A stretch of 22,885 nucleotides of DNA from a candidate division WOR-3 bacterium. Its GTDB lineage: Bacteria > Hydrothermota > UBA3072 > B12-G15. Location: the NCBI GenBank assembly GCA_965649055.1, contig CBFGJG010000033.1:1-22885 (forward strand), given 5' to 3'. The notes under the pieces are model-generated. The model had not been told where the DNA came from and searched no databases. It worked only from the letters and a program-made list of their open reading frames with translations. Both the position numbers and the translations under genes were made by a program. The first letter of the stretch is position 1; the number at the start of each line of letters is the position of its first letter. Below, piece after piece: positions 6,634-22,806 of the stretch.

Positions 6634-7371
6634 ATGGTATGGTTATTTACTCTAATAAGTGTTATAATCGTAAGCATTGTATCATTTATTGGTATTTTAT
6701 TTGTATTAGCAAAAAATCTTGATAAACTTATATTGATTTTAATCAGTTTTGCAGCAGGTGCATTGATAGGTGATGCATTTATACATCTTATACCTGAAAG
6801 TGTGGAAGAGATAAGTAATATCAGGGTATTCTCTGTTTTGGTTATTTCAGGGATTTTGTTATTCTTTATACTCGAAAAATTTCTATGCTGGAGGCATTGC
6901 CATATACCTACATCAGAAAAACATCCACATCCACTGGCATTTATAAATATAATTGGAGATGGTCTTCACAATTTTATGGATGGTTTAATAATAGGTGCAA
7001 GCTATAGCGTGAATACAATGATAGGTTTAACAACAACCATAGCGGTTATACTCCATGAGATACCACAGGAGATAGGAGATTTTGGGGTTCTGATTTTTGC
7101 AGGGATGAAAAGGAAAAAGGCATTGATATTTAATTTTCTTTCCGCACTAACTGCAATTCTTGGGGCAATAGTTTCACTTATAATAGGACCGAATGTAAAA
7201 AATTATTCAATATATCTTATGCCTATAACAGCAGGTGGCTTTATTTATATTGCCTGTTCAGACCTTATTCCAAGACTTCAGGGATGGCAATTATTAAAAA
7301 CTGTTATAATTCAGTTTTTTGCAATGATAATGGGAATCCTTTTAATGTTTTTTCTTGCCTGTATAGGATGA
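6634..7371 (+). CDS. ZIP family divalent metal transporter (LIV-1-like HExPxEIGD type)
   Basis: GDAFIHLIPE, His-rich loop WRHCHIP..KHPH, GDGLHNFMDG, HEIPQEIGDF. GGAGG SD at 6625-6629. Confidence 0.93.
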   Translation: MVWLFTLISVIIVSIVSFIGILFVLAKNLDKLILILISFAAGALIGDAFIHLIPESVEEISNIRVFSVLVISGILLFFILEKFLCWRHCHIPTSEKHPHPLAFINIIGDGLHNFMDGLIIGASYSVNTMIGLTTTIAVILHEIPQEIGDFGVLIFAGMKRKKALIFNFLSALTAILGAIVSLIIGPNVKNYSIYLMPITAGGFIYIACSDLIPRLQGWQLLKTVIIQFFAMIMGILLMFFLACIG

Positions 7372-10727: not shown

Positions 10728-12200
10728 TTATATCCTGTTATATATTTTAGTAAGTTTTAAAAGATTATCTGAGATTCTTTTTTCAAAATTTCCGTTGAAT
10801 CTCCATCGCCAGTTACCTTCATTTTTCCCCGGTATATTCATCCTTGCACCCGAATCAAGGTTGAAAATATCCTGTAATGGAATTATTGAATATCTTGAGA
10901 CTGACATCATAGCAAGCCTTATAAAAACCCAGTTTACAAATTCTTCTTTTACCTTGTATCCAACATAATAGTTTAGATTTTCCTTCTCTTCATCTGTTGC
11001 ATTTTTAAACCATCCTCTTACAGTATCAGTATCATGTGTTCCGGTATATACAACTGAATTCTCTATATGATTGTGTAGAACATATGGATTTTTTGATATA
11101 TCACCACCGAATGCAAATACAAGAACCTTCATACTCAAAAATCCAAAATCCTTTATTAATTCTCTAACATCAGGTGTTATAATTCCAAGGTCTTCTGCAA
11201 TCACTGGAATATTAGGATAGAAAAGTAAAACTTTTTTGAACAATTCTTCACCTGGACCTTTTTCCCAATGACCATTTATTGCTGTTTTTTCTCCATAAGG
11301 GATTTCCCAGAAACCACAGAATCCTCTGAAATGGTCTATCCTTATAAAATCAAAGTTTTTCAAATAAAAACCTATCCTTTTTATCCACCAATCATAATTT
11401 CTTTCTTTTAACCTTTCCCAGTTATAAACAGGATTACCCCATAGCTGCCCGGTATTGCTGAAATAATCAGGTGGAACACCAGAAACAAATATTGGTCTAA
11501 GATTATGGTCAAGTTTAAAGATATCCGGATTTGCCCATACATCCGGACTATCAAAACTTACATATATAGGTAAATCACCTATTATCTGAATTCCTTTTTC
11601 ATTGCAGTATCTTTTTAATTTGCTCCATTGTTTATAAAAAATATACTGGAAGAATTTATGTTTCTCTATTTCTTTTTTCAATTCATTGTTATAATAATTT
11701 ATGGTATCTGGATTTCTTCTTTTAAGACCATCTTCCCAATCACACCATACACTTCCATTATATCTTTCTTTAAGTGCACAGAATAATGCAAAATCTTCAA
11801 GCCAGAAATTATTCTCTTCACAGAAATTTTCGTATTCCTGATTTATCTTAAATCTTTCAAATGCCTTTTCTAATATTTCTCTTTTAAATCTATAAACATT
11901 GTTGTAATCTACATAATCTTTATTTTCATCATTAAATGAAATTTCATCTTCTCTTAAAAATCCATCCTGAATTAGTAATTCAGGTGATATGAAAATTGTA
12001 TTCCCGGCAAATGTTGAGTAATTATTGTAAGGTGAGTTACCAAACTCGTTCAAGGTAGGATTTACCGGTAATATTTGCCATAGTGTCTGTCCGGATGATA
12101 GAAGAAAATCTGCAAATCTGTATGCAGAATATCCTAAATCACCTATTCCAAATTCTGATGGAAGTGAACTTATATGCATTAGTATACCTGATTTTCTCAT
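10728..12200 (-). CDS. malQ: 4-alpha-glucanotransferase (amylomaltase, GH77)
   Basis: RKSGILMHISSLP, GVPPDYFSNTGQLWGNP, RIDHFRG, IAEDLG, YTGTHD, RMNIPG, NWRWR. ATGA overlap with the upstream gene. Confidence 0.97.
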   Translation of the reverse strand: MRKSGILMHISSLPSEFGIGDLGYSAYRFADFLLSSGQTLWQILPVNPTLNEFGNSPYNNYSTFAGNTIFISPELLIQDGFLREDEISFNDENKDYVDYNNVYRFKREILEKAFERFKINQEYENFCEENNFWLEDFALFCALKERYNGSVWCDWEDGLKRRNPDTINYYNNELKKEIEKHKFFQYIFYKQWSKLKRYCNEKGIQIIGDLPIYVSFDSPDVWANPDIFKLDHNLRPIFVSGVPPDYFSNTGQLWGNPVYNWERLKERNYDWWIKRIGFYLKNFDFIRIDHFRGFCGFWEIPYGEKTAINGHWEKGPGEELFKKVLLFYPNIPVIAEDLGIITPDVRELIKDFGFLSMKVLVFAFGGDISKNPYVLHNHIENSVVYTGTHDTDTVRGWFKNATDEEKENLNYYVGYKVKEEFVNWVFIRLAMMSVSRYSIIPLQDIFNLDSGARMNIPGKNEGNWRWRFNGNFEKRISDNLLKLTKIYNRI

Positions 12201-14608
12201 TCTTCCTCCAGATGAACATAAAGGTAATCCATAAGTGTTTCAAATATGTTTATCCAATTTTTGGCATCTTCTTCGCCTTTATCTGCCTTTTCAGATTTCT
12301 CCTTATAGTATTTTTCACCAAGATAAAAATATAGATTCTGGGCCTTCCAAAGGTTTAATTCAATATTATATTTTTTAGCAACCTTCAAGAATCCTTCTAT
12401 CTTTGAAAGAATCTCTATATTATCCGGGGTTTCCATAAGGCTATTAAACAGATTATTTACAGTATCGGTTAACAAAAATCCTAATTTTATTCTATCTATC
12501 TTTACAGACATCCTTTTTAATTCTTCAAGGATTCCATCTAACATTGAAGGGTCTGAATTTAACCTTATAGCGTCATTTGCCTTAGAATTCAGAACATATT
12601 CAATTGTATCCTGGATTATCTTCGGGAAAGGTGTCTTTGTTTCAAACAAGAAATTAAGAATCCCTGAATTTTTTTCATAAAATTCAATCAAAGAAAACCT
12701 GATTTCTTTGTATGTTTCCATCAGTATTGTATCAATTATCTTTCTCTGTTCATCTTTAAAAAGATTAAGTAATGAATAAGTGTGTTCATTGAATACTGTA
12801 TCAATTTCTCTTATAAGATTTGTAATCTCTCCTTTTTTGAATATATCAGCAAGTTTTTTTACTTTAAAATAATTTTCATTAGAATTTTCTATTATTCCGC
12901 ATAATACATTCTGATCTCCAAGATGTAAAACTGCATATATAAAATCTTTGAATTCATCGGTTCTTTTAGATTTTATCTTTATCTCTCCAATTCTTAACCT
13001 CATACTTCCTGAGAAATGGTCCTCTGATGTGAATGATTCAATTTCGTAGCAGTATAATTCTTTATTAGATTCCTGATTAAATATATTTGAAATAACAAAA
13101 TGTGCCGCTACCTTTTCAAGATTAAGTGCATTAGGAATAACAAAATTTCTGTAAATGAACTCACCATCCTTTAATTCGTTTATGTTACTTTTTGCATCTT
13201 TCAACATATTAATGAATATTTCTTCTATTCTTCCACCATTCAATTCCTCAGCAAGCTGAATTGCCCTTTTTGCGTACATCAATATCTGCTGTGTCTCTAT
13301 GTTTGAAATATCATCAAAGAACCATCCACAACTTGTGAACATCAGATTTCCCATCCTTTCCATCTCGAGAATCTTCAGGATTTTTATTCTTTCTTCATTA
13401 TTTATTTCCTTCTTTTTATATTTTGATATCAGTTCTTCAAATTTTACATTATTCATAAATAAGTCTATGTAATCATTCAACAAATCCTTTGGATTATTAA
13501 CAAATTCTATAATCTTCTCATTGTAAATCTTATCAATCTCGTCTTTTAGATAATCAAGTGCATTTCTTAAAGGTTTTCTCCATTTCTGATTCCAGCCAGG
13601 ATGAGAACCTGTATTACAGCCGCAATCATCCTTCCATCTTTCTATACCATGTGAACAGCTCCAGGATGTATTCTCTATTATCTTCACTTCATATTCAGGG
13701 GGAAATTTGTTCAGAAATTCTGAATAGTTTGTTAGTTTTGCTATCTTTTTTTCTTCAATGTAGTTCAGGCAATAGGATAAAGCCATATCTCCATATTTAT
13801 GGTGATGTCCATAGGTTTCACCATCAGTAGCAATATTAACAATCTGAGGTTCATTTGCATTTGAGAAGGATGAAAGCAATCTTTTAGCAAAATTTTCTCC
13901 GTTCTTCAATAATCCACCAAATGCAACATCGTGTGATATATCTTTATCGTAGAAAAATATAGAAATAGTCCTGTCATCAGGTAATATACAGAGATAAGGT
14001 CTCCTTGTATCTATTTTGCCACCTGAAACATCTATCCATCTTTCTTCGCCTATCTTCCTTATCATTTTAGCCTGATACGGTGAAAGTATAGTGAATCTTA
14101 TCCCATTCTCAGCAAGTATACATAACGTCTCTATATCAACAGCAGTCTCTGGTAGCCACATTCCTAAAGGCAATCTTTTAAATCTATTGTAGAAATCTTT
14201 TATTCCCCATTTAACCTGTGTTATTTTTACTTCCTTCTTTGAAAGCGGCATTATTATATGGTTATAACATTGTGCAATGGCAGAGCCAAAACCACTAAAG
14301 TTTTTTCTTGATTCATAATCTGATTCAATTATCTTATTATATAAATCATTCCTTTTTTTCTCCATCCAGGATAAAAGCGTAGGTCCGAAATTGAAACTTA
14401 TTTTTGTATAGTTGTTCAATATATCTATAATTTTCCCTTTATCATTCAAAATCCTTGAAGCAGTATTTGCCTCATAACATTCTGCTGTTATCCTTTCATT
14501 CCAGTCATGGTATGGATAAGCAGAATCCTGTATCTGGATATCTTCAAGCCAGGGATTCTCCCTTGGCGGCTGATAAAAATGTGCATGAATACATATATAT
14601 CTTTCCAT
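12197..14608 (-). CDS. Glycoside hydrolase family 57 with DUF3536 C-terminal domain
   Basis: HAHFYQPPRENPW, SFNFGPTLLSW, GMWLPETAVD (nucleophile Glu), ATDGETYGHH (acid/base Asp), SWSCSHGIERW, MFTSCGWFFDD. Confidence 0.92.
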   Translation of the reverse strand: MERYICIHAHFYQPPRENPWLEDIQIQDSAYPYHDWNERITAECYEANTASRILNDKGKIIDILNNYTKISFNFGPTLLSWMEKKRNDLYNKIIESDYESRKNFSGFGSAIAQCYNHIIMPLSKKEVKITQVKWGIKDFYNRFKRLPLGMWLPETAVDIETLCILAENGIRFTILSPYQAKMIRKIGEERWIDVSGGKIDTRRPYLCILPDDRTISIFFYDKDISHDVAFGGLLKNGENFAKRLLSSFSNANEPQIVNIATDGETYGHHHKYGDMALSYCLNYIEEKKIAKLTNYSEFLNKFPPEYEVKIIENTSWSCSHGIERWKDDCGCNTGSHPGWNQKWRKPLRNALDYLKDEIDKIYNEKIIEFVNNPKDLLNDYIDLFMNNVKFEELISKYKKKEINNEERIKILKILEMERMGNLMFTSCGWFFDDISNIETQQILMYAKRAIQLAEELNGGRIEEIFINMLKDAKSNINELKDGEFIYRNFVIPNALNLEKVAAHFVISNIFNQESNKELYCYEIESFTSEDHFSGSMRLRIGEIKIKSKRTDEFKDFIYAVLHLGDQNVLCGIIENSNENYFKVKKLADIFKKGEITNLIREIDTVFNEHTYSLLNLFKDEQRKIIDTILMETYKEIRFSLIEFYEKNSGILNFLFETKTPFPKIIQDTIEYVLNSKANDAIRLNSDPSMLDGILEELKRMSVKIDRIKLGFLLTDTVNNLFNSLMETPDNIEILSKIEGFLKVAKKYNIELNLWKAQNLYFYLGEKYYKEKSEKADKGEEDAKNWINIFETLMDYLYVHLEEE

Positions 14609-14610
14609 AA

Positions 14611-16494
14611 TTATCTTTCTAATTTAAGGTAAACCACTCCTAATGGTGGAAATGTTAATGATAAAGAGTATTTTCTTCCGTGTGAAGGAATATATTCTGT
14701 ATGTTTTCCTCCAAAATTCCCCTGCCCAGAACCACCATATTCAACTGCATCACTATTTAATATCTCCTTCCAGAAACCTTTTTCAGGGACTCCAATCCTG
14801 TAGTTATGTCTTGGAACAGGCGTAAAATTACATATTACAAGAATAATTTCCCCTTCTTTACTTTTTCTTAAATAACTTACAACACTTGAATCTGCATCAG
14901 AAAAGTCTATCCATTCAAATCCTTCAGGGGAAAAATCAAGTTCATAAAGTGCTTTTTCATTCCTATAGATTTTGTTTAAATCCCTGACATAGTTTTTTAA
15001 TTTTATATGCGTATCAAAATCCAAAAGATTCCATTCAATTTCTCTATCATGGTTCCATTCATTCCAGACACCTATCTCACCACCCATAAACAGTAATTTT
15101 TTACCGGGATGGGAAAACATATATCCATATAGACACCTTAGATTTGCAAATTTCTGCCATAGATCACCTGGCATTTTTGAAAGTAAAGAGCCCTTACCAT
15201 GGACAACTTCATCATGTGATAATGGAAGAATAAAATTTTCAGTGAATGCATACCATATACTGAATGTGATTAAATCCTGATGATATTTTCTGTGAACAGG
15301 CTCTTTTGAAAAATATCTTAATGTGTCATTCATCCATCCCATCTTCCATTTCATACCGAATCCAAGACCATTTAGATAAACAGGTTTTGTAACAGCAGGC
15401 CATGCAGTTGATTCTTCTGCTATTGTCTGTGTATCATTGAATCTTCCATAAATTTCAACATTAAGTCTTTTAATAAAATCTATTGCTTCAAGATTTTCCC
15501 TTCCACCATATTTATTGGGTATCCACTCACCTTCCTTCCTTGAATAATCAAGATATAGCATTGATGCAACTGCGTCAACCCTTATGCCATCTATATGATA
15601 TTTTTCAAACCAGAATACAGCACTGCTTATTAAGAATTCCCTGACCTCATTCCTTCCATAGTTGAATATTAGACTATTCCAGTCTGGATGGTATCCCTTT
15701 CTTCTATCCTGATGTTCATAAAGGTGTGTTCCATCAAAGAATGAAAGGCCATGTTCATCATTTGGAAAATGGGAAGGAACCCAGTCAAGTATAACACCTA
15801 TATCATTCTGATGTAATTTATCAACAAGGAACATAAAATCCTGTGGAGTTCCATACCTTGATGTTGGTGCAAAATATCCGGTTATCTGGTATCCCCACGA
15901 ACCATAAAATGGATGTTCCATGAGAGGTAAAAATTCAATATGTGTAAAGCCCATTTCTTTTAAATATTTTACAAGTTCCTCTGCAATTTCTCTGTAATTC
16001 AAGAAATGAAAACCTTTTCTTCTCCAGGAACCAAGATGAACTTCATATATTGAAATAGGAGCATCAAGTTTATTTTTTTCTTTTCTTTTTTCCATCCATT
16101 CCTTGTCCTTCCATTCGTAATCAAGTTCCCAGACTATTGATGCTGTCTTTGGTGGTGTCTCAAAGTAAAATCCAACCGGGTCTGATTTTAAGACACAATA
16201 ATTATTATATCTTGACCTTATAAAATATTTGTAAAGGCTTCCCCTTTTTACACCTTTAATAAAACCATCCCATATTCCCGAACCATCTTCACGGGGTTTT
16301 AATGGATTTTTTGAATTATCCCAGTTGTTAAAATCTCCTATAACAGAGACATAAACAGCATCAGGTGCCCATACTGCAAAATATACACCATCATTAACAA
16401 TATGGGCACCTAATTTTTCGTAAATTTTATAATGATTTCCCTGCTTAAAAAGGTAAATATCAAAATCAGTTAAAATTGAATATTTATTTTCCAC
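14611..16494 (-). CDS. glgB: 1,4-alpha-glucan branching enzyme (GH13_9)
   Basis: [55 protein letters not shown] start. Confidence 0.97.
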
Positions 16495-17392: not shown

Positions 17393-18703
17393 TTAATGGA
17401 TTATAATTATCTTCTTAATTTCATTATCTGTTTCTAAAATATAAATTCCTGAAGGAACATTTCCTATAAATATCTTACCTCGTCTACCTCTTATTTCCTT
17501 AACTATTTTACCTGTAATATCATATATCTTACAGTATCTTTTAACATCTATTTCTAATGTCTCAGAATATATTATTATTGATTCTTTCTTAATATCTTCA
17601 GGAACAAATGATGGATTATACTCTGAAATATAATAAATATCTATATTGTGATAATCCGGATAATGACCGCTAAAAATAAGATGAACCTTCCCTATACTAT
17701 CAAGTAGAACATTATTACGTATAGTGAAATTTACATAATCTCGTGGTATTGTCTCACAAACCCAAGAGTTCTCTATTTTTGCATAGTCTAATATATTTGT
17801 TTCAGTTAATGTTGTATCTACACTCCCAAGAATATGGGGTATGTGGTGTCCATCGGTATATACCTGTAAATAAATAAGTTTACTTTTTATCTCTTCCACT
17901 TCATCAAATGGATACTTACTGAAACAAATTGCTATTGAAACTCCTTTTTTGTTTTGCCACTTTTCCCTCCAAGCAACAATTGGAATATCCTCATTATCAA
18001 GATTAATTGTATATGCACAACTATTAGGGTAAAATCTATTTTCCCTTGATATTTTCTTTGGAGTTGACCAGACACCATTTACTCTCATTGAAAAATACAA
18101 ATGATAATAACCCATTGCATCCCTATTTAACCAGATAACATATACTATTCCATTCTTGCATTTTATTACCGGATAATAATTTGCTATTGGAATATTTGAA
18201 ATTAGTTCAGGTGTTGACCATTGATTATTCTTTTTAACAGAATAATATAATCCACCATCGTTATAATCATCAAATACTATATGAACATAAGAACTCTCAT
18301 CAATTGCTATGTTAGGTGTTGAACAGGGATGTAAAAATGAATCTGATAAATTTACAGGTCCTATCCATTGTGAACCATTATGAAACATATAATATATCCT
18401 ACCAGAAGTTGTTCCCATAAGCCTGCAGAATATAATATGTGGATTACCAAGTGTATCAACTGCTATCTTTGCATCCTGAAGTCCATAACCAGTTGTTGGG
18501 TGAAAAATTATCCTTCCTGAATCCGGCCATATACCATTCGTAGTCCTTGTATACCAGAGAAAACAGGAATCGTCATCAGGTCTTGTAGCATATACAACAT
18601 GTTTCTCTGAATACCTATCAATTGCTGCATGAGGATATTGAACCGGTAATTCACTATTTGAAATATTTAGTGGTATTGTCCAGTAAAAGAATAAAAAACT
18701 CAT
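17393..18703 (-). CDS. Secreted beta-repeat (propeller-like) protein with T9SS type A-like C-terminal domain
   Basis: Repeats of IAVD..G.PHI.F/W...IYY....G.WS.P..IS; C-terminal KIYDITGKIV...VPSGIYIL...KKIIIIH. GGAGG SD at 18712-18708. Confidence 0.75.
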   Translation of the reverse strand: MSFLFFYWTIPLNISNSELPVQYPHAAIDRYSEKHVVYATRPDDDSCFLWYTRTTNGIWPDSGRIIFHPTTGYGLQDAKIAVDTLGNPHIIFCRLMGTTSGRIYYMFHNGSQWIGPVNLSDSFLHPCSTPNIAIDESSYVHIVFDDYNDGGLYYSVKKNNQWSTPELISNIPIANYYPVIKCKNGIVYVIWLNRDAMGYYHLYFSMRVNGVWSTPKKISRENRFYPNSCAYTINLDNEDIPIVAWREKWQNKKGVSIAICFSKYPFDEVEEIKSKLIYLQVYTDGHHIPHILGSVDTTLTETNILDYAKIENSWVCETIPRDYVNFTIRNNVLLDSIGKVHLIFSGHYPDYHNIDIYYISEYNPSFVPEDIKKESIIIYSETLEIDVKRYCKIYDITGKIVKEIRGRRGKIFIGNVPSGIYILETDNEIKKIIIIH

Positions 18704-18714
18704 AAAACCTCCAG

Positions 18715-18741
18715 TAAGGTAGGGGGTTTCCCCCTACCTTA
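18715..18741. other. Perfect 12-bp hairpin spanning the peptidase stop codon
   Basis: TAAGGTAGGGGG (18715-18726), TTT loop, CCCCCTACCTTA (18730-18741). On the minus strand it is followed by CTGGAGG rather than a U-tract. Confidence 0.8.
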
Positions 18742-21652
18742 TTACTGTTATTTTGAAGATCTTTTCTTTGTTTATCCTCATTATGTATATTCCCGCAGGA
18801 AGTTCTTTTATCATCATCTCTCCTTCCACAACCCCTTCTTTTATTTTCCTTCCCTGAATATCAAATAATTCTATTTCACTTCTTAGATTATCTTTATTAA
18901 GAATTATCCTATCAAACACTACATTGCTTACAGGTTGAACATCTCTTTCTTCAATCCCAAATTTTTCAAAATCAAATATACTTGAACTCGCGTCATTCTT
19001 TATTATCCCAATAAGCCCCATCGTTACCTTCGCGTTCCCTTTTATCTTTATTATCCTTTCTCCATTAAACTTTTTCACCTTGTAAATCGAAACACCATTA
19101 CAAATAGTCTTAGATTCTTCATTTAAAAGTTCTTCGTCAAGATATATATTCCCTTTTTTCTCAGGTGTCCAGTAAACAATGTATTTTGCATTCTCCATAT
19201 TTATATTATATAATAAACTATCGCCAAAGTCAAGTGCTATACCTTCCTCTGTCCTTATTATACTTTCTCTCCAAACAACATCAGATGAACCCCCTATTTT
19301 CAATGGTTCAATAATAATACCTATTGCATAAATGACATTTGATGCAGGACCTTCCTGGTTTAACATATCATAACAGGTAACATAATAATAATGTTCTGAA
19401 CCAGATTGAACCCTGTGTGTATAATTTGAATTCCTTGTCTTTCCTAATAGTTCCCAGGCACCATTCGGAACCCTATGATAAACATTATATGCAACCCTAT
19501 CCTGTTCTGTATTATCATTCCAGTCAAGATTGATATTCACAACACCAGGTCTATAAGGCGTAACATTATAAGTTAATCCTGTTGGTGCATCAGGAGCAAG
19601 TCCATCATCCCATCCAATAAATGTATTATTTCCTATATTACCGATATCTGAATATTGTGGATGTTCAGGTGGTTTTATATACTCATAACAATTTCCTCCA
19701 CTACAATAATATAACTTTCTTCTGAATTTCTGACTGTCAAATGTATCCACATAATCATATACTTCTTTCATTGAGATAAGATAATCATTATAACCAGAAG
19801 GTCCTATATATGTGCTTCCATAAGGTGTTTCTCTCCTTACAACATTCATTGCATGGAATGAGAATTCTCCATGCGGGACTGTATCCGTTCCTATTATTTC
19901 ATTTTCAGAGCCATAAACCACATAATTTTCCCAGTTCTCTATAGGATTTGGGTCTCTCTGCCATTGATTTATATTATACCAAGGAATATCATCTGCCCTC
20001 CATGCTAATTCTGTCCCACTTGCAGATGTTAATATAACAGTGTTATCTGATGAAAGGTCATCTATAAAACCACCACTATAACATTGTTGCATCCAGTAAA
20101 CTTTCTTACCTGCATTTACATTACTGAATTTCTCAGAAAAATCCTCATCACTTATCACATAATCTAATAGACAGAGATATGAATTATCACCATTTGAACC
20201 AAGACCTGAAAGGAATAGATAATTACCCTGTTTTGCTAACCCACTTATATATGCACCTTCAGGCTGATAATGTGAAACCAGAGATGGTAAATATGGATTT
20301 GAAACATCTACAATATAAACACCACCATCATATCCCGCAACGAAAAGATAATTCCCATATTTCTTAATCTCCATAGTATAGCATCCTTCAAGTAATATCT
20401 CTGATATTTCAGATAAAAGCTCGTCTCTGTAAAGAACCTTTAAAAAACCATCTCCACCTGCGTAAAGATAAAAACTATCTACTTCTACATCAAAAATTGG
20501 AGGAGAAAAATTAAAATATGAAACTTGTTCAGGTTCAGATATGCTAATAACCCCAATAAAGCCTGAAGAAACTGATTGGGGAATTGCTAAATAACAAGTA
20601 TCAGTTGTCGTCCCTCTTCTTACTCCAATCATAGGCCTATTTGTTTTATTAAAATATATAGAAGATATTTGTTGTGGATCTCCTGGATTGGAAATATCAT
20701 ATATTTTTAGGTACGAGTATCCCCCTGAAACTGCATAAAGTCTATTTCCACATATCTCAAAATCCGTTATCTGATTTTGATTATCTGTATCAACAACATA
20801 TGGTGCATCTGGATTACTTATATTCACGGTCTTTAAACCACTATTATTTAGACCAACATAAGCATAATTTCCTGAAACTTCAATAGAGAATGCATTTTCT
20901 CCTAAACCAAAATCAAGAACACCTCTTTCAACAAGTTCATCAGGATTTGTAGCATCTGTTATTGTGAGAAATCCTTTAAATCCATTTCCCATTGAAACTG
21001 TATAAACATAATTACCTTGAACTTCTATCTGGTAGCCAAAGATATTTGGGAACGAATAGCTAAGAGGCTGTGGACTGTTTAAGTTAGTAATATCAACAGA
21101 GTGTGTTGTCCAACCTGCTGTTCCGTGGTCATGTGTTAATACATAAAGATAATCATCCTCATCCATTGGTTCATAACCATAATTTTCATCACCTTCTGAT
21201 AGATACCTTATAAGCGAATCAAGCCCTTCTTTTGTAGCCTTTAAAGGAAGACCATCCGTGATTTTGTCACCACTCCATCCTTGGAGCCAATGATTTTCTG
21301 CCTTATATCTTATCCAGTTACATTCTTCATCCTGTCCATGTCCATACAAAACAAATATATGGTCTGTTAAAGCATCATTCCCATATAAAGAGAATTTTTG
21401 ATAATACCAAAGTAATTCCCAGTAAAGATATGCATCAGTCCAGAATTCCCAATATTCACTTGTTCCCTTTGAACCTTCAGTTGTATCAAGATTTATTACT
21501 TCCTTTAAAAACTCACCATTATACAATGGAAGTATATTTCCATCTTTCTTAAAACCACTAACAGAATTTGATATCACAACACCTATGTTATTCCTTATCC
21601 CAAATAATGAGATAGAAATAAATATTAAGATCAAAATCAACATTTTTTTCAT
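18734..21652 (-). CDS. Secreted clan CD (legumain/C13-like) cysteine peptidase with inserted LVIVD beta-propeller, FN3 domain and T9SS-like C-terminal domain
   Basis: Signal peptide; EFWTD...HIFVLYGHG; YLYVLTHDHG (His176); YWMQQCYSGGFIDDL (Cys524); VILTSA..E.AW; 7 LVIVD-type repeats at aa ~181-484; FN3 (APDAPTGL..LDWNDNTE..AYNVY..YYYVTCYD); tail ELFDIQGRKI..LPAGIYIMRI..KITVIR. AAAGGAGG SD. Confidence 0.85.
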   Translation of the reverse strand: MKKMLILILIFISISLFGIRNNIGVVISNSVSGFKKDGNILPLYNGEFLKEVINLDTTEGSKGTSEYWEFWTDAYLYWELLWYYQKFSLYGNDALTDHIFVLYGHGQDEECNWIRYKAENHWLQGWSGDKITDGLPLKATKEGLDSLIRYLSEGDENYGYEPMDEDDYLYVLTHDHGTAGWTTHSVDITNLNSPQPLSYSFPNIFGYQIEVQGNYVYTVSMGNGFKGFLTITDATNPDELVERGVLDFGLGENAFSIEVSGNYAYVGLNNSGLKTVNISNPDAPYVVDTDNQNQITDFEICGNRLYAVSGGYSYLKIYDISNPGDPQQISSIYFNKTNRPMIGVRRGTTTDTCYLAIPQSVSSGFIGVISISEPEQVSYFNFSPPIFDVEVDSFYLYAGGDGFLKVLYRDELLSEISEILLEGCYTMEIKKYGNYLFVAGYDGGVYIVDVSNPYLPSLVSHYQPEGAYISGLAKQGNYLFLSGLGSNGDNSYLCLLDYVISDEDFSEKFSNVNAGKKVYWMQQCYSGGFIDDLSSDNTVILTSASGTELAWRADDIPWYNINQWQRDPNPIENWENYVVYGSENEIIGTDTVPHGEFSFHAMNVVRRETPYGSTYIGPSGYNDYLISMKEVYDYVDTFDSQKFRRKLYYCSGGNCYEYIKPPEHPQYSDIGNIGNNTFIGWDDGLAPDAPTGLTYNVTPYRPGVVNINLDWNDNTEQDRVAYNVYHRVPNGAWELLGKTRNSNYTHRVQSGSEHYYYVTCYDMLNQEGPASNVIYAIGIIIEPLKIGGSSDVVWRESIIRTEEGIALDFGDSLLYNINMENAKYIVYWTPEKKGNIYLDEELLNEESKTICNGVSIYKVKKFNGERIIKIKGNAKVTMGLIGIIKNDASSSIFDFEKFGIEERDVQPVSNVVFDRIILNKDNLRSEIELFDIQGRKIKEGVVEGEMMIKELPAGIYIMRINKEKIFKITVIR

Positions 21653-21707
21653 TTAAACCTCCTTTTTACTTTTTATTAAGCGGTAAAATTTTATAAAGAT
21701 ATATTTC

Positions 21708-21738
21708 ACCCTTTGCACCCACTTATGATGCAAAGGGT
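21708..21738. other. 10-bp perfect inverted repeat in the peptidase leader
   Basis: ACCCTTTGCA (21708-21717), 11-nt loop, TGCAAAGGGT (21729-21738). Confidence 0.7.
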
Positions 21739-21819
21739 ATCCTGAATAAATTTAAACCTCCTGAATAATCTGAATATCTTACAATGATTATTGTTTATCT
21801 TGAAAACACAGTATTTAAC

Positions 21820-21838
21820 GAGAGAGAGAGAGAGAGAG
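21820..21838. repeat. Dinucleotide microsatellite G(AG)9
   Basis: gagagagagagagagagag read directly, in the intergenic region between the divergent peptidase and zupT genes. Confidence 0.95.
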
Positions 21839-21877
21839 TTTAAATTTGTATATGATAAAACTTATAATCATAATTTA

Positions 21878-21905
21878 TTTATAATAAAAAATAAAAATTT
21901 GTCAA
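21878..21905 (-). promoter_or_regulatory. Putative sigma70 promoter for the peptidase operon
   Basis: TTGACA (21905-21900), N16, TATAAA (21883-21878). Confidence 0.45.
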
Positions 21906-21983
21906 GAGTAAACTATAAATGTGATTAATAGTTAATTTTCTCAGTAATAAATCTCAGCAGACCTTTTTGCATATAAAATTTCA

Positions 21984-22018
21984 TTGAAATTTGGAAATTT
22001 TTAATAATAATCATAATA
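21984..22018 (+). promoter_or_regulatory. Putative zupT promoter with overlapping Fur-family-like box
   Basis: TTGAAA (21984-21989), N16, AATAAT (22006-22011), then 6 nt to the ATG at 22018. Positions 22000-22018 match the 19-bp Fur consensus at 14 of 19 sites, but the background is very AT-rich. Confidence 0.4.
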
Positions 22019-22806
22019 TGAATTTAGAAAATGTATTTTTAGCGTTTTTACTCACAATGCTGGCAGGACTTTCAACAGGGATTGGTAGTTTAATAGCATT
22101 CTTTTCTAAAAAATTTAATCCTTTTTTTCTCTCTGTTTCACTTGGTTTTTCTGCCGGTGTTATGATATATATATCATTCGTTGAAATATTCCAAAAGTCA
22201 AATATTTTATTTTTAGATTCCTTTGGAGCGAAGACAGGCTACTTTATGACTATCTTATCTTTTTTTATTGGTATTTTTATTATTGCATTGATAGATAAAC
22301 TTGTTCCATCATTTGAAAATCCACACGAGATAAAAATTTTAAAAGATGATAATACAAAATTGTACAGGATGGGTTTATTTTCAGCATTAGCAATTTCAAT
22401 ACATAATTTCCCTGAAGGTTTTGCAACATTCATTTCAGCACTTGAAAATCCAAAGATTGGTTTTAGTATCGCAATCGCAATTGCAATTCACAACATACCC
22501 GAAGGGATTGCGGTTTCAGTTCCTGTTTATTATGCCACAAAGAACAGGAAGAAGGCATTCTGGCTTTCATTTCTTTCAGGTTTATCAGAGCCATTAGGTG
22601 CTATAATCTTTTTCCTGATTTTAAGAAATTTTTTAAATGGAATTATATCTGGGATTGTTTACGGGATAGTTGCAGGGATTATGGTCTATATATCACTTGA
22701 TGAACTCTTACCAACCGCTGAAGAGTATGGTAAACATCATATTGCGATAGGGGGGCTTATATGTGGTATGATTTTAATCGCATTCAGTTTATTTTTGTTT
22801 AAATGA
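22018..22806 (+). CDS. zupT: ZIP family zinc/divalent metal transporter ZupT (GufA type)
   Basis: AGLSTGIG, LGFSAGVMIYISFVEI, ENPHE, IHNFPEG, IHNIPEGIAV, SGLSEP, AGIMVYISLDELLP. The ATG at 22018 (MNLENV) is preferred over the track's TTG at 21991. Confidence 0.93.
   Translation: MNLENVFLAFLLTMLAGLSTGIGSLIAFFSKKFNPFFLSVSLGFSAGVMIYISFVEIFQKSNILFLDSFGAKTGYFMTILSFFIGIFIIALIDKLVPSFENPHEIKILKDDNTKLYRMGLFSALAISIHNFPEGFATFISALENPKIGFSIAIAIAIHNIPEGIAVSVPVYYATKNRKKAFWLSFLSGLSEPLGAIIFFLILRNFLNGIISGIVYGIVAGIMVYISLDELLPTAEEYGKHHIAIGGLICGMILIAFSLFLFK

Follow-up and report, generated by a model that had tools for sequence, protein, structure and literature searches.

A secreted-type clan CD peptidase apparently split by an LVIVD beta-propeller between its predicted catalytic residues in a candidate division WOR-3 bacterium

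The stretch of DNA analysed here, referred to as the window, comprises the 22,885 nucleotides (nt) of contig CBFGJG010000033.1 (assembly GCA_965649055.1) from a candidate division WOR-3 bacterium, and our main subject is a gene on its minus strand that encodes a protein of 972 residues. The protein is almost certainly a clan CD peptidase that is split by a beta-propeller of the LVIVD type, with the predicted catalytic histidine on one side of the propeller and the predicted nucleophilic cysteine on the other. The gene and its parts are as follows (T9SS, type IX secretion system).

21652-18734, minus strand: whole gene, 972 residues, with signal peptide, split clan CD peptidase, LVIVD propeller, FN3-like domain, unnamed middle domain and T9SS-type tail.
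21596..21652, minus strand: likely signal peptide, residues 1 to about 19, a basic start followed by a hydrophobic run, as read from the sequence.
21113..21592, minus strand: putative peptidase N-half, residues 21-180, with the first strand, the FWxD motif (Asp73) and a strand ending in His176-Gly177, by profile match.
21125..21127, minus strand: His176, the predicted catalytic His, by conservation and by alignment with the His of metacaspase-4 and legumain.
20201..21112, minus strand: inserted seven-bladed LVIVD beta-propeller, residues 181-484, by Pfam LVIVD and both structure models, the closing blade being made of two strands from each end.
19604..20200, minus strand: putative peptidase C-half, residues 485-683, with the MQQC motif, ENE, HGEFxxH and PQYSD, by profile match and a weak Pfam C13 match.
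20081..20083, minus strand: Cys524, the predicted nucleophile, by conservation.
19319..19597, minus strand: FN3/Ig-like domain, residues about 686-778 with approximate limits, from a weak Pfam GH85_C match at 707-744 (E 0.0012, below cut-off) and a pattern common to relatives.
18737..18913, minus strand: T9SS type A sorting-type tail, residues 914-972 (TIGR04183, 24.6 bits against a cut-off of 23).

The split was first proposed in a sequence-only reading of this locus, which had placed a catalytic-type His and Cys 348 residues apart, and both motifs lie where it put them, THDHG at residues 173-177 and QQCYSGG at residues 522-528, so that the His176-Cys524 spacing is indeed 348. The seven LVIVD-type repeat starts it had listed are found at residues 185, 230, 275, 317, 368, 404 and 447, and the closing half-repeat GLAKQGNYLFLSG is located at residues 471-483. 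It had also calculated that removal of residues 181-484 would bring the dyad to a spacing of about 44; exactly 44 is obtained, and the uninterrupted relative P0071 has a spacing of 42.

The two flanks of the propeller are best read as halves of one clan CD domain, because they matched adjoining positions of a profile that was built from 88 uninterrupted members only, the N-half positions 69-173 (E 7.5e-20) and the C-half positions 175-338 (E 1e-56). P0071 itself is a protein of 535 residues with no insert and a His170-Cys212 dyad, it passes the Pfam C13 cut-off (2.6e-10, 40.7 bits), and it can be aligned to both flanks of the 972-residue protein (31% over 137 columns and 33% over 251 columns). 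The spacing of the dyad was mapped in 159 proteins, made up of the best 150 of 381 matches to the C-half and nine from earlier searches, seven of the nine having been chosen because they carry an insert. A spacing of 37-61 was found in 107 of these proteins and of 336-410 in 14, with 38 unmapped by the motif rule; among the best 150 of the 381 matches taken alone, seven mapped as inserted, besides which the fragment P0125 carries a propeller ahead of its C-half. The sequence-only reading had suggested that homologues with and without the insert be compared, and both forms do occur in one peptidase family. The Pfam LVIVD label is present on 11 of the 14 inserted proteins, the remaining three (P0129, P0139 and P0146) having been assigned by eye. 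The layout recurs, at 28-50% identity, in another 13 proteins taken from independent assemblies, so that the split is the product of neither chance nor misassembly.

The predicted catalytic His is present in all 14 inserted rows and in 86 of the 88 other rows of the family alignment, as is the predicted nucleophilic Cys, and invariant across the inserted rows are His176, Gly177, Gln523, Cys524, Glu583, Asn584, Glu585, His594 and Glu596. Since the His, the Cys and the core residues are kept in all 14 inserted forms, it is very probable, on this conservation, that the enzyme retains activity.

With regard to its affiliation, the protein is almost certainly a member of clan CD, near families C13 and C14 but not clearly inside either. 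A phmmer search of the PDB with the single 972-residue protein gave no match for the peptidase part. The 103-row family profile matched metacaspase-4 (6w8s, 4e-8), VdiPAL1 (6e-5) and legumain (1e-4) in the PDB with His and Cys in register, the match to metacaspase-4 taking in the first strand, the ND Asp, the His and the Cys. Like the legumains (C13) the window protein has a His-Gly...Cys dyad with a core spacing of about 42-44, and its family profile matches legumains. It differs from them in the 304-residue propeller between His and Cys, in the replacement of the legumain RHQAD segment by (E/A/S)FWxD across its family, and in the conserved ENE and HGEFxxH motifs, the FN3-like domain with T9SS-type tail and the partner gene described below; furthermore, no Pfam match to the legumain prodomain was found in it at E up to 1. 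The Arg and His of RHQAD are S1 residues in legumain. The P1 preference of the window family is likely, from its sequence motifs, not to be Asn or Asp, and a basic P1 residue would be a weak guess from conserved acidic residues. The metacaspases (C14) share the ND Asp, which is Asp73 in the window protein, is found in 13 of 14 inserted and 81 of 88 other rows and is aligned with that of 6w8s. Metacaspases have an Asp two residues before the Cys, with a role in the S1 region, whereas the window family has Gln522 at this position (13 of 14 inserted and 78 of 88 other rows) and the window protein has a secreted-type layout; neither this protein nor the inserted homologues tested matched Pfam C14.

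A domain search could, according to the sequence-only reading, miss the peptidase and report only the propeller. This holds for the window protein, where the precomputed label is LVIVD only, the Pfam LVIVD match (PF08309) is strong (3e-19, 68.5 bits), and Peptidase_C13 (PF01650, residues 499-551) scores 19.5 bits against a gathering score of 22.8, the Pfam match to the sorting tail (PF18962, residues 919-964) being likewise below cut-off. It does not hold throughout, as four of seven tested inserted homologues pass the C13 score.

Structure prediction bears on both domains. AlphaFold2 with a 12-row alignment folded the propeller and left the peptidase at low confidence, with a predicted template modelling score (pTM) of 0.63. 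With the 103-row alignment a model of 670 residues was obtained that includes both domains at a mean predicted local distance difference test score (pLDDT) of 86.6 and a pTM of 0.84, and that has alternating strands and helices in both flanks, in an order which fits the caspase fold. The propeller has 28 strands, or seven blades, over about residues 181-484, in agreement with the closed propeller of the sequence-only reading, and it superposes on the seven-bladed 1l0q with a Z of 31.3 and a root mean square deviation of 2.2 over 269 aligned residues; on these models it is a closed LVIVD propeller fold. It had been argued that the insert begins with one half of a blade and ends with the other, and strands C-D do come first and A-B last. 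Because the insert opens with C-D and closes with A-B of one blade, we read from the strand list that both links to the peptidase would lie at a single B-C turn. Stand-alone LVIVD arrays such as P0055, as read from their repeats, begin with strand D and end with strand C, and from its sequence the insert resembles a segment taken, in phase, out of a repeat array. The high pTM suggests a defined arrangement of propeller and peptidase. When the full model was used in fold searches only propellers were among the matches listed, with the peptidase part barely covered, and the top match was an archaeal surface-layer propeller; Foldseek listed no match spanning both domains, the highest query TM-score listed being 0.36. 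Taken with the uninterrupted homologues and the family profile, the model supports the original proposal that a whole propeller is grafted just after the His of a clan CD peptidase.

The inserts are 295-369 residues long, and in all 13 that were examined the point of entry directly follows His-Gly and the repeat phase is the same. The 26 propeller columns conserved in at least 10 of 14 rows are all structural LVIVD repeat residues, and no part of the catalytic region diverges more than the propeller. For example, P0001 and P0002 are 38% identical in the propeller and 59% and 63% in the peptidase halves, and for P0059 and P0139 the values are 29% in the propeller, 53% and 50% in the halves and 99% in the tail. 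As the tails of the latter two are nearly the same and their peptidases and propellers divergent, these sequences point to segment exchange between paralogues. By eye, P0125 and P0019 also have near-identical C-terminal tails, with peptidase and propeller differing. C-terminal extensions of many kinds occur across the peptidase family, with lengths up to about 1300 residues, and P0124 (892 residues), again by eye, has the peptidase domain twice in tandem and, after these copies, another region that is caspase-like. A search of the host genome found no close paralogue of the 972-residue peptidase; a lipoprotein-type open reading frame (ORF) in that genome (G000:C27:4927-5817, plus strand) has a distant caspase/metacaspase-like domain (SGHG ... 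DAC).

The distribution of the insert is patchy. Among 201 genomes of the host phylum the C-half was matched in 11, five of which, the host included, have the insert, and the source labels assign four inserted proteins to WOR-3, two to 'bacterium' and one cluster member to an Altiarchaeales archaeon, this last label possibly being a binning error. A genome-wide scan gave 64 loci, of which 31 have the short spacing, two the insert (one by eye) and 31 are unmapped, and all mapped loci with a named phylum are uninterrupted. In a peptidase tree of 43 rows, 15 inserted and 28 other, which had been chosen from an earlier quick tree, the inserted forms occupy one region and are interleaved with uninterrupted ones. 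A single origin without later change was rejected, with three to four changes on the tree and one change in 0 of 200 bootstrap trees, and forcing the inserted forms into one clade was likewise rejected by the approximately unbiased (AU) test (p=0.004). Similarity between inserts was highest in register for 25 of 56 between-group pairs compared with 21 of 104 control pairs, the pairs not being independent, and for each insert some stand-alone LVIVD window gave a higher score than did the inserts of other groups, the stand-alone controls having been chosen by similarity to the 972-residue protein. One gain followed by losses or gene conversion and several separate gains would both be compatible with the tree.

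The peptidase gene is followed on the same strand by a second gene, referred to here as the partner gene, and a hairpin lies at their junction.

17393..18703, minus strand: partner gene, 436 residues, with a signal-type start, BNR/Asp-box-type repeats (a predicted propeller, residues about 8-361) and a T9SS-type tail (Pfam, TIGR04183).
18713..18743: hairpin of 14 pairs that spans the stop codon of the peptidase gene, just 5' of the ribosome-binding site of the partner.

A similar G/C-rich hairpin of different sequence is found at the same peptidase-partner junction of another inserted locus (L080:7077-7106). The partner scores 24.2 with TIGR04183 and so, like the peptidase, lies above the cut-off, and 51 ORFs of the host genome have a T9SS-type tail at E up to 1e-3. 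Relatives of the partner carry BNR_2 in 41 of 60 cases and Por_Secre_tail in 57 of 60; its PDB matches are only short Asp-box stretches of sialidases plus tails, and the ESM Atlas gave no family name for it.

In 51 of the 64 loci a partner homologue lies at most 400 nt from the peptidase gene on the same strand, upstream in 48 and downstream in three, the partner profile having been seeded from the same loci, many of which the partner protein of the window alone already matches. Of the 13 loci without a partner within 400 nt, nine have less than 1 kb of upstream DNA and one has a partner at 612 nt. In five whole genomes, picked for holding a peptidase-partner locus, a partner match was found within about 1.1 kb of all eight peptidase copies, two of them newly seen, and 12 of 13 partner-like genes had a peptidase no more than a few kb away. 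The conserved peptidase-partner gene pair, which runs across several phyla, is new in this analysis; the link between the two proteins is drawn from gene order, and any role of the partner is putative. Where the peptidase is inserted the partner may be downstream (the window and L080), upstream (L081) or on both sides (L083), and it was not seen at L082, where the upstream flank is only 36 nt; the partners of the window and L080 are 32% identical. That the insert replaces the partner was considered and rejected, the window, L080, L081 and L083 carrying both. Partner-like sequence occurs in the host genome at two places by tblastn and in eight ORFs by profile. At some loci there are two to four divergent partner genes, mostly in tandem upstream (L021, L025, L028, L029, L031, L041, L042, L045, L048, L056 and L079), and at others the peptidase gene is broken into two or more ORFs and the partner next to it looks intact (L003, L008, L049, L050, L051, L054, L070 and L078), presumably as a result of frameshifts, stops or sequence errors. 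A complex prediction for the uninterrupted peptidase and partner of L034 scored 0.02 against a mark of 0.32, which we count as evidence neither way. The sequence-only reading, upheld as to the architecture itself, did not extend to this conserved propeller gene next to the peptidase, to how fast the insert diverges or to its patchy distribution on the tree.

Ahead of the peptidase gene there is one further feature of note.

21694..21920, minus strand: promoter-like leader of about 230 nt, with TTGACA-N16-TATAAA, a (TC)n tract and a CCCTTTGCA..TGCAAAGGG hairpin.

This leader recurs whole or in part on other contigs (twice on C34, and on C81, C32, C20, C70, C56 and C17) at 77-96% identity, the length of the (TC)n tract varies between copies, and several copies precede genes with signal-peptide or lipoprotein-type starts. 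Either a regulatory leader shared among genes or a small promoter that is mobile is conceivable. Rfam matched nothing in the window, the leader included, and a promoter scan was at chance level (34 compared with 33.8). Elsewhere in the window there are three adjacent glucan-metabolism-like genes (10728-16494, minus strand), which from their motifs we take to be 4-alpha-glucanotransferase-like, glycoside-hydrolase-57-like and branching-enzyme-like, and two ZIP-type metal transporter genes, at 6634-7371 (plus strand, by eye) and 21991-22806 (plus strand, by Pfam).

One parallel in architecture lies outside clan CD. Members of the S9 family are serine alpha/beta-hydrolases that have their triad in the C-terminal segment and a fixed propeller. 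In the window protein the insert instead parts the two catalytic residues and is LVIVD-type, variable and optional, the core is of the His-Cys clan CD type rather than Ser-Asp-His, and no S9 match was found. According to PMC3827171, prolyl oligopeptidase and oligopeptidase B have their propeller between two segments of the peptidase domain, and in oligopeptidase B the inserted propeller limits substrate size. The window protein is thus, by analogy, a parallel to the propeller-capped prolyl oligopeptidases that is not a member of S9. LVIVD propellers and C13 are found in one chain in P0055 and P0057, but there the propellers are wholly ahead of an intact peptidase. A cluster of 98 members in the ESM Atlas (score 0.87) is labelled Peptidase C13, with NHL repeats on 50% of members, and is a lead only. 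A second comparison is with the plant ligase VyPAL2, for which the source (10.1101/2021.12.09.471967) gives His172 and Cys214, a spacing of 42, and describes the dipeptide at His+2/+3 as LAD2, on the primed side at the S2' pocket, where it shifts enzyme preference. The insertion point in the window protein follows the dipeptide that is LAD2 in VyPAL2.

We propose by these analogies, and consider the chances to be about even, that the protein is a secreted Cys peptidase on which an optional and fast-changing propeller sits at the prime side as a cap or exosite that selects or filters substrates. The protein would be exported by Sec and then delivered to the surface through its T9SS-type tail, and its two halves would refold into one clan CD domain with a His176-Cys524 dyad. 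Because short links tie it in just after the His, the propeller would be placed beside the S1'/S2' side, held by two such links at one B-C turn at the position of LAD2 in plant ligases. Here it would bind or filter substrates, and differing propellers would confer differing preferences on a constant catalytic core. The BNR-type propeller protein would be the older working partner of the family (substrate, adaptor or inhibitor), and the LVIVD insert a WOR-3 add-on that has not replaced it. Several observations weigh against this proposal. The pTM bears only indirectly on the geometry of propeller over cleft and on the His-Cys distance, and in the 12-row model the peptidase was poorly folded; the conserved columns include no conspicuous functional residue specific to the insert, and a passive module would look alike; lower identity in the propeller is expected of any repeat domain; and L032, L043 and L076 are without a partner despite upstream flanks of at least 1.9 kb. 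Furthermore the insert is dispensable, since about nine-tenths of the mapped members are without it and close insert-free relatives nest among the inserted ones.

Alternatively the peptidase may be active and the propeller a passive module for adhesion or spacing, accommodated by a surface loop that is permissive, in which case it would anchor the enzyme to surfaces or particles and leave its specificity unaffected. Such a loop is suggested by the uninterrupted members, in which the length at His+4 varies (spacing 37-61), and the many differing C-terminal extensions, the surface-layer propeller as best structural match and the purely structural conservation of the propeller are all consistent with a passive module. 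We nevertheless regard it as rather unlikely, as 13 of 13 inserts examined share both the loop and the phase, even though this family often gains domains at its C-terminus, and the pTM of 0.84 suggests a fixed domain arrangement. That the gene is misassembled or a dead chimera is scarcely credible: there is a single copy in a draft genome and Pfam C13 is below cut-off, but the layout recurs in 13 other clusters and in five of 201 phylum genomes with catalytic and core residues invariant, which effectively refutes it.

Two further explanations take the partner as their starting point. The locus might be a polymorphic conflict module, in which a secreted effector or self-processing peptidase is accompanied by immunity proteins or inhibitors (the partners) and the insert is a variable targeting domain. 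Multiple divergent partner copies beside one peptidase (L021 to L048 in the list above) and tail swapping between paralogues would fit this, and caspase-like domains are described as processing or toxin domains of polymorphic systems in PMC3482391. It is improbable, however, given that the partner carries export signals itself (Por_Secre_tail in 57 of 60) and is mostly upstream (48 of 51), and that the window protein has no recognised toxin domain and ends in FN3-like and sorting domains. Alternatively the enzyme might be a surface transpeptidase or ligase, comparable to the plant asparaginyl ligases or to GPI8 and PorU, that processes or cross-links the partner, with the propeller controlling access of the incoming amine at the prime side. 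Profile matches to VdiPAL1 and another asparaginyl ligase, the LAD2 position of the insert and a co-secreted partner as a ready substrate speak for this, but the residues at His+2/+3 are conserved in neither inserted nor uninterrupted forms and profile matches cannot tell ligases from hydrolases, so that we think this quite improbable too.

Among the papers listed in full-text searches of the open literature, none described in its title or the opening of its abstract a propeller that splits a clan CD peptidase, or the peptidase-partner pair; MEROPS, InterPro, subscription journals and supplements lay outside the search, and the supplements of comparative-genomics papers might contain such architectures. 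A broader reading, which we put forward tentatively as a possibility on the doubtful side, is that a two-gene secreted module of Bacteroidota, Cloacimonadota, Ignavibacteriota, Calditrichota and WOR-3 joins a legumain/metacaspase-like peptidase to a propeller protein dedicated to it, and that in WOR-3 the prime-side loop of the enzyme has also acquired an exchangeable LVIVD propeller, either on several occasions or through repeated exchange of cassettes, as a convergent form of prolyl-oligopeptidase-style gating on a caspase fold. The split peptidase with its LVIVD-only label exposes a blind spot in annotation, and the gene pair would be a widespread and unannotated peptidase and propeller combination in bacteria with T9SS-type secretion. 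The caspase fold would tolerate a domain of 295-369 residues between its catalytic His and Cys, in the very loop by which legumains are tuned towards hydrolysis or ligation. If the broader reading is true, gating sits between the catalytic residues themselves and offers a means, found in nature, of reprogramming clan CD proteases or ligases. Because matched natural versions with and without the insert exist, the effect of a propeller cap is directly testable.

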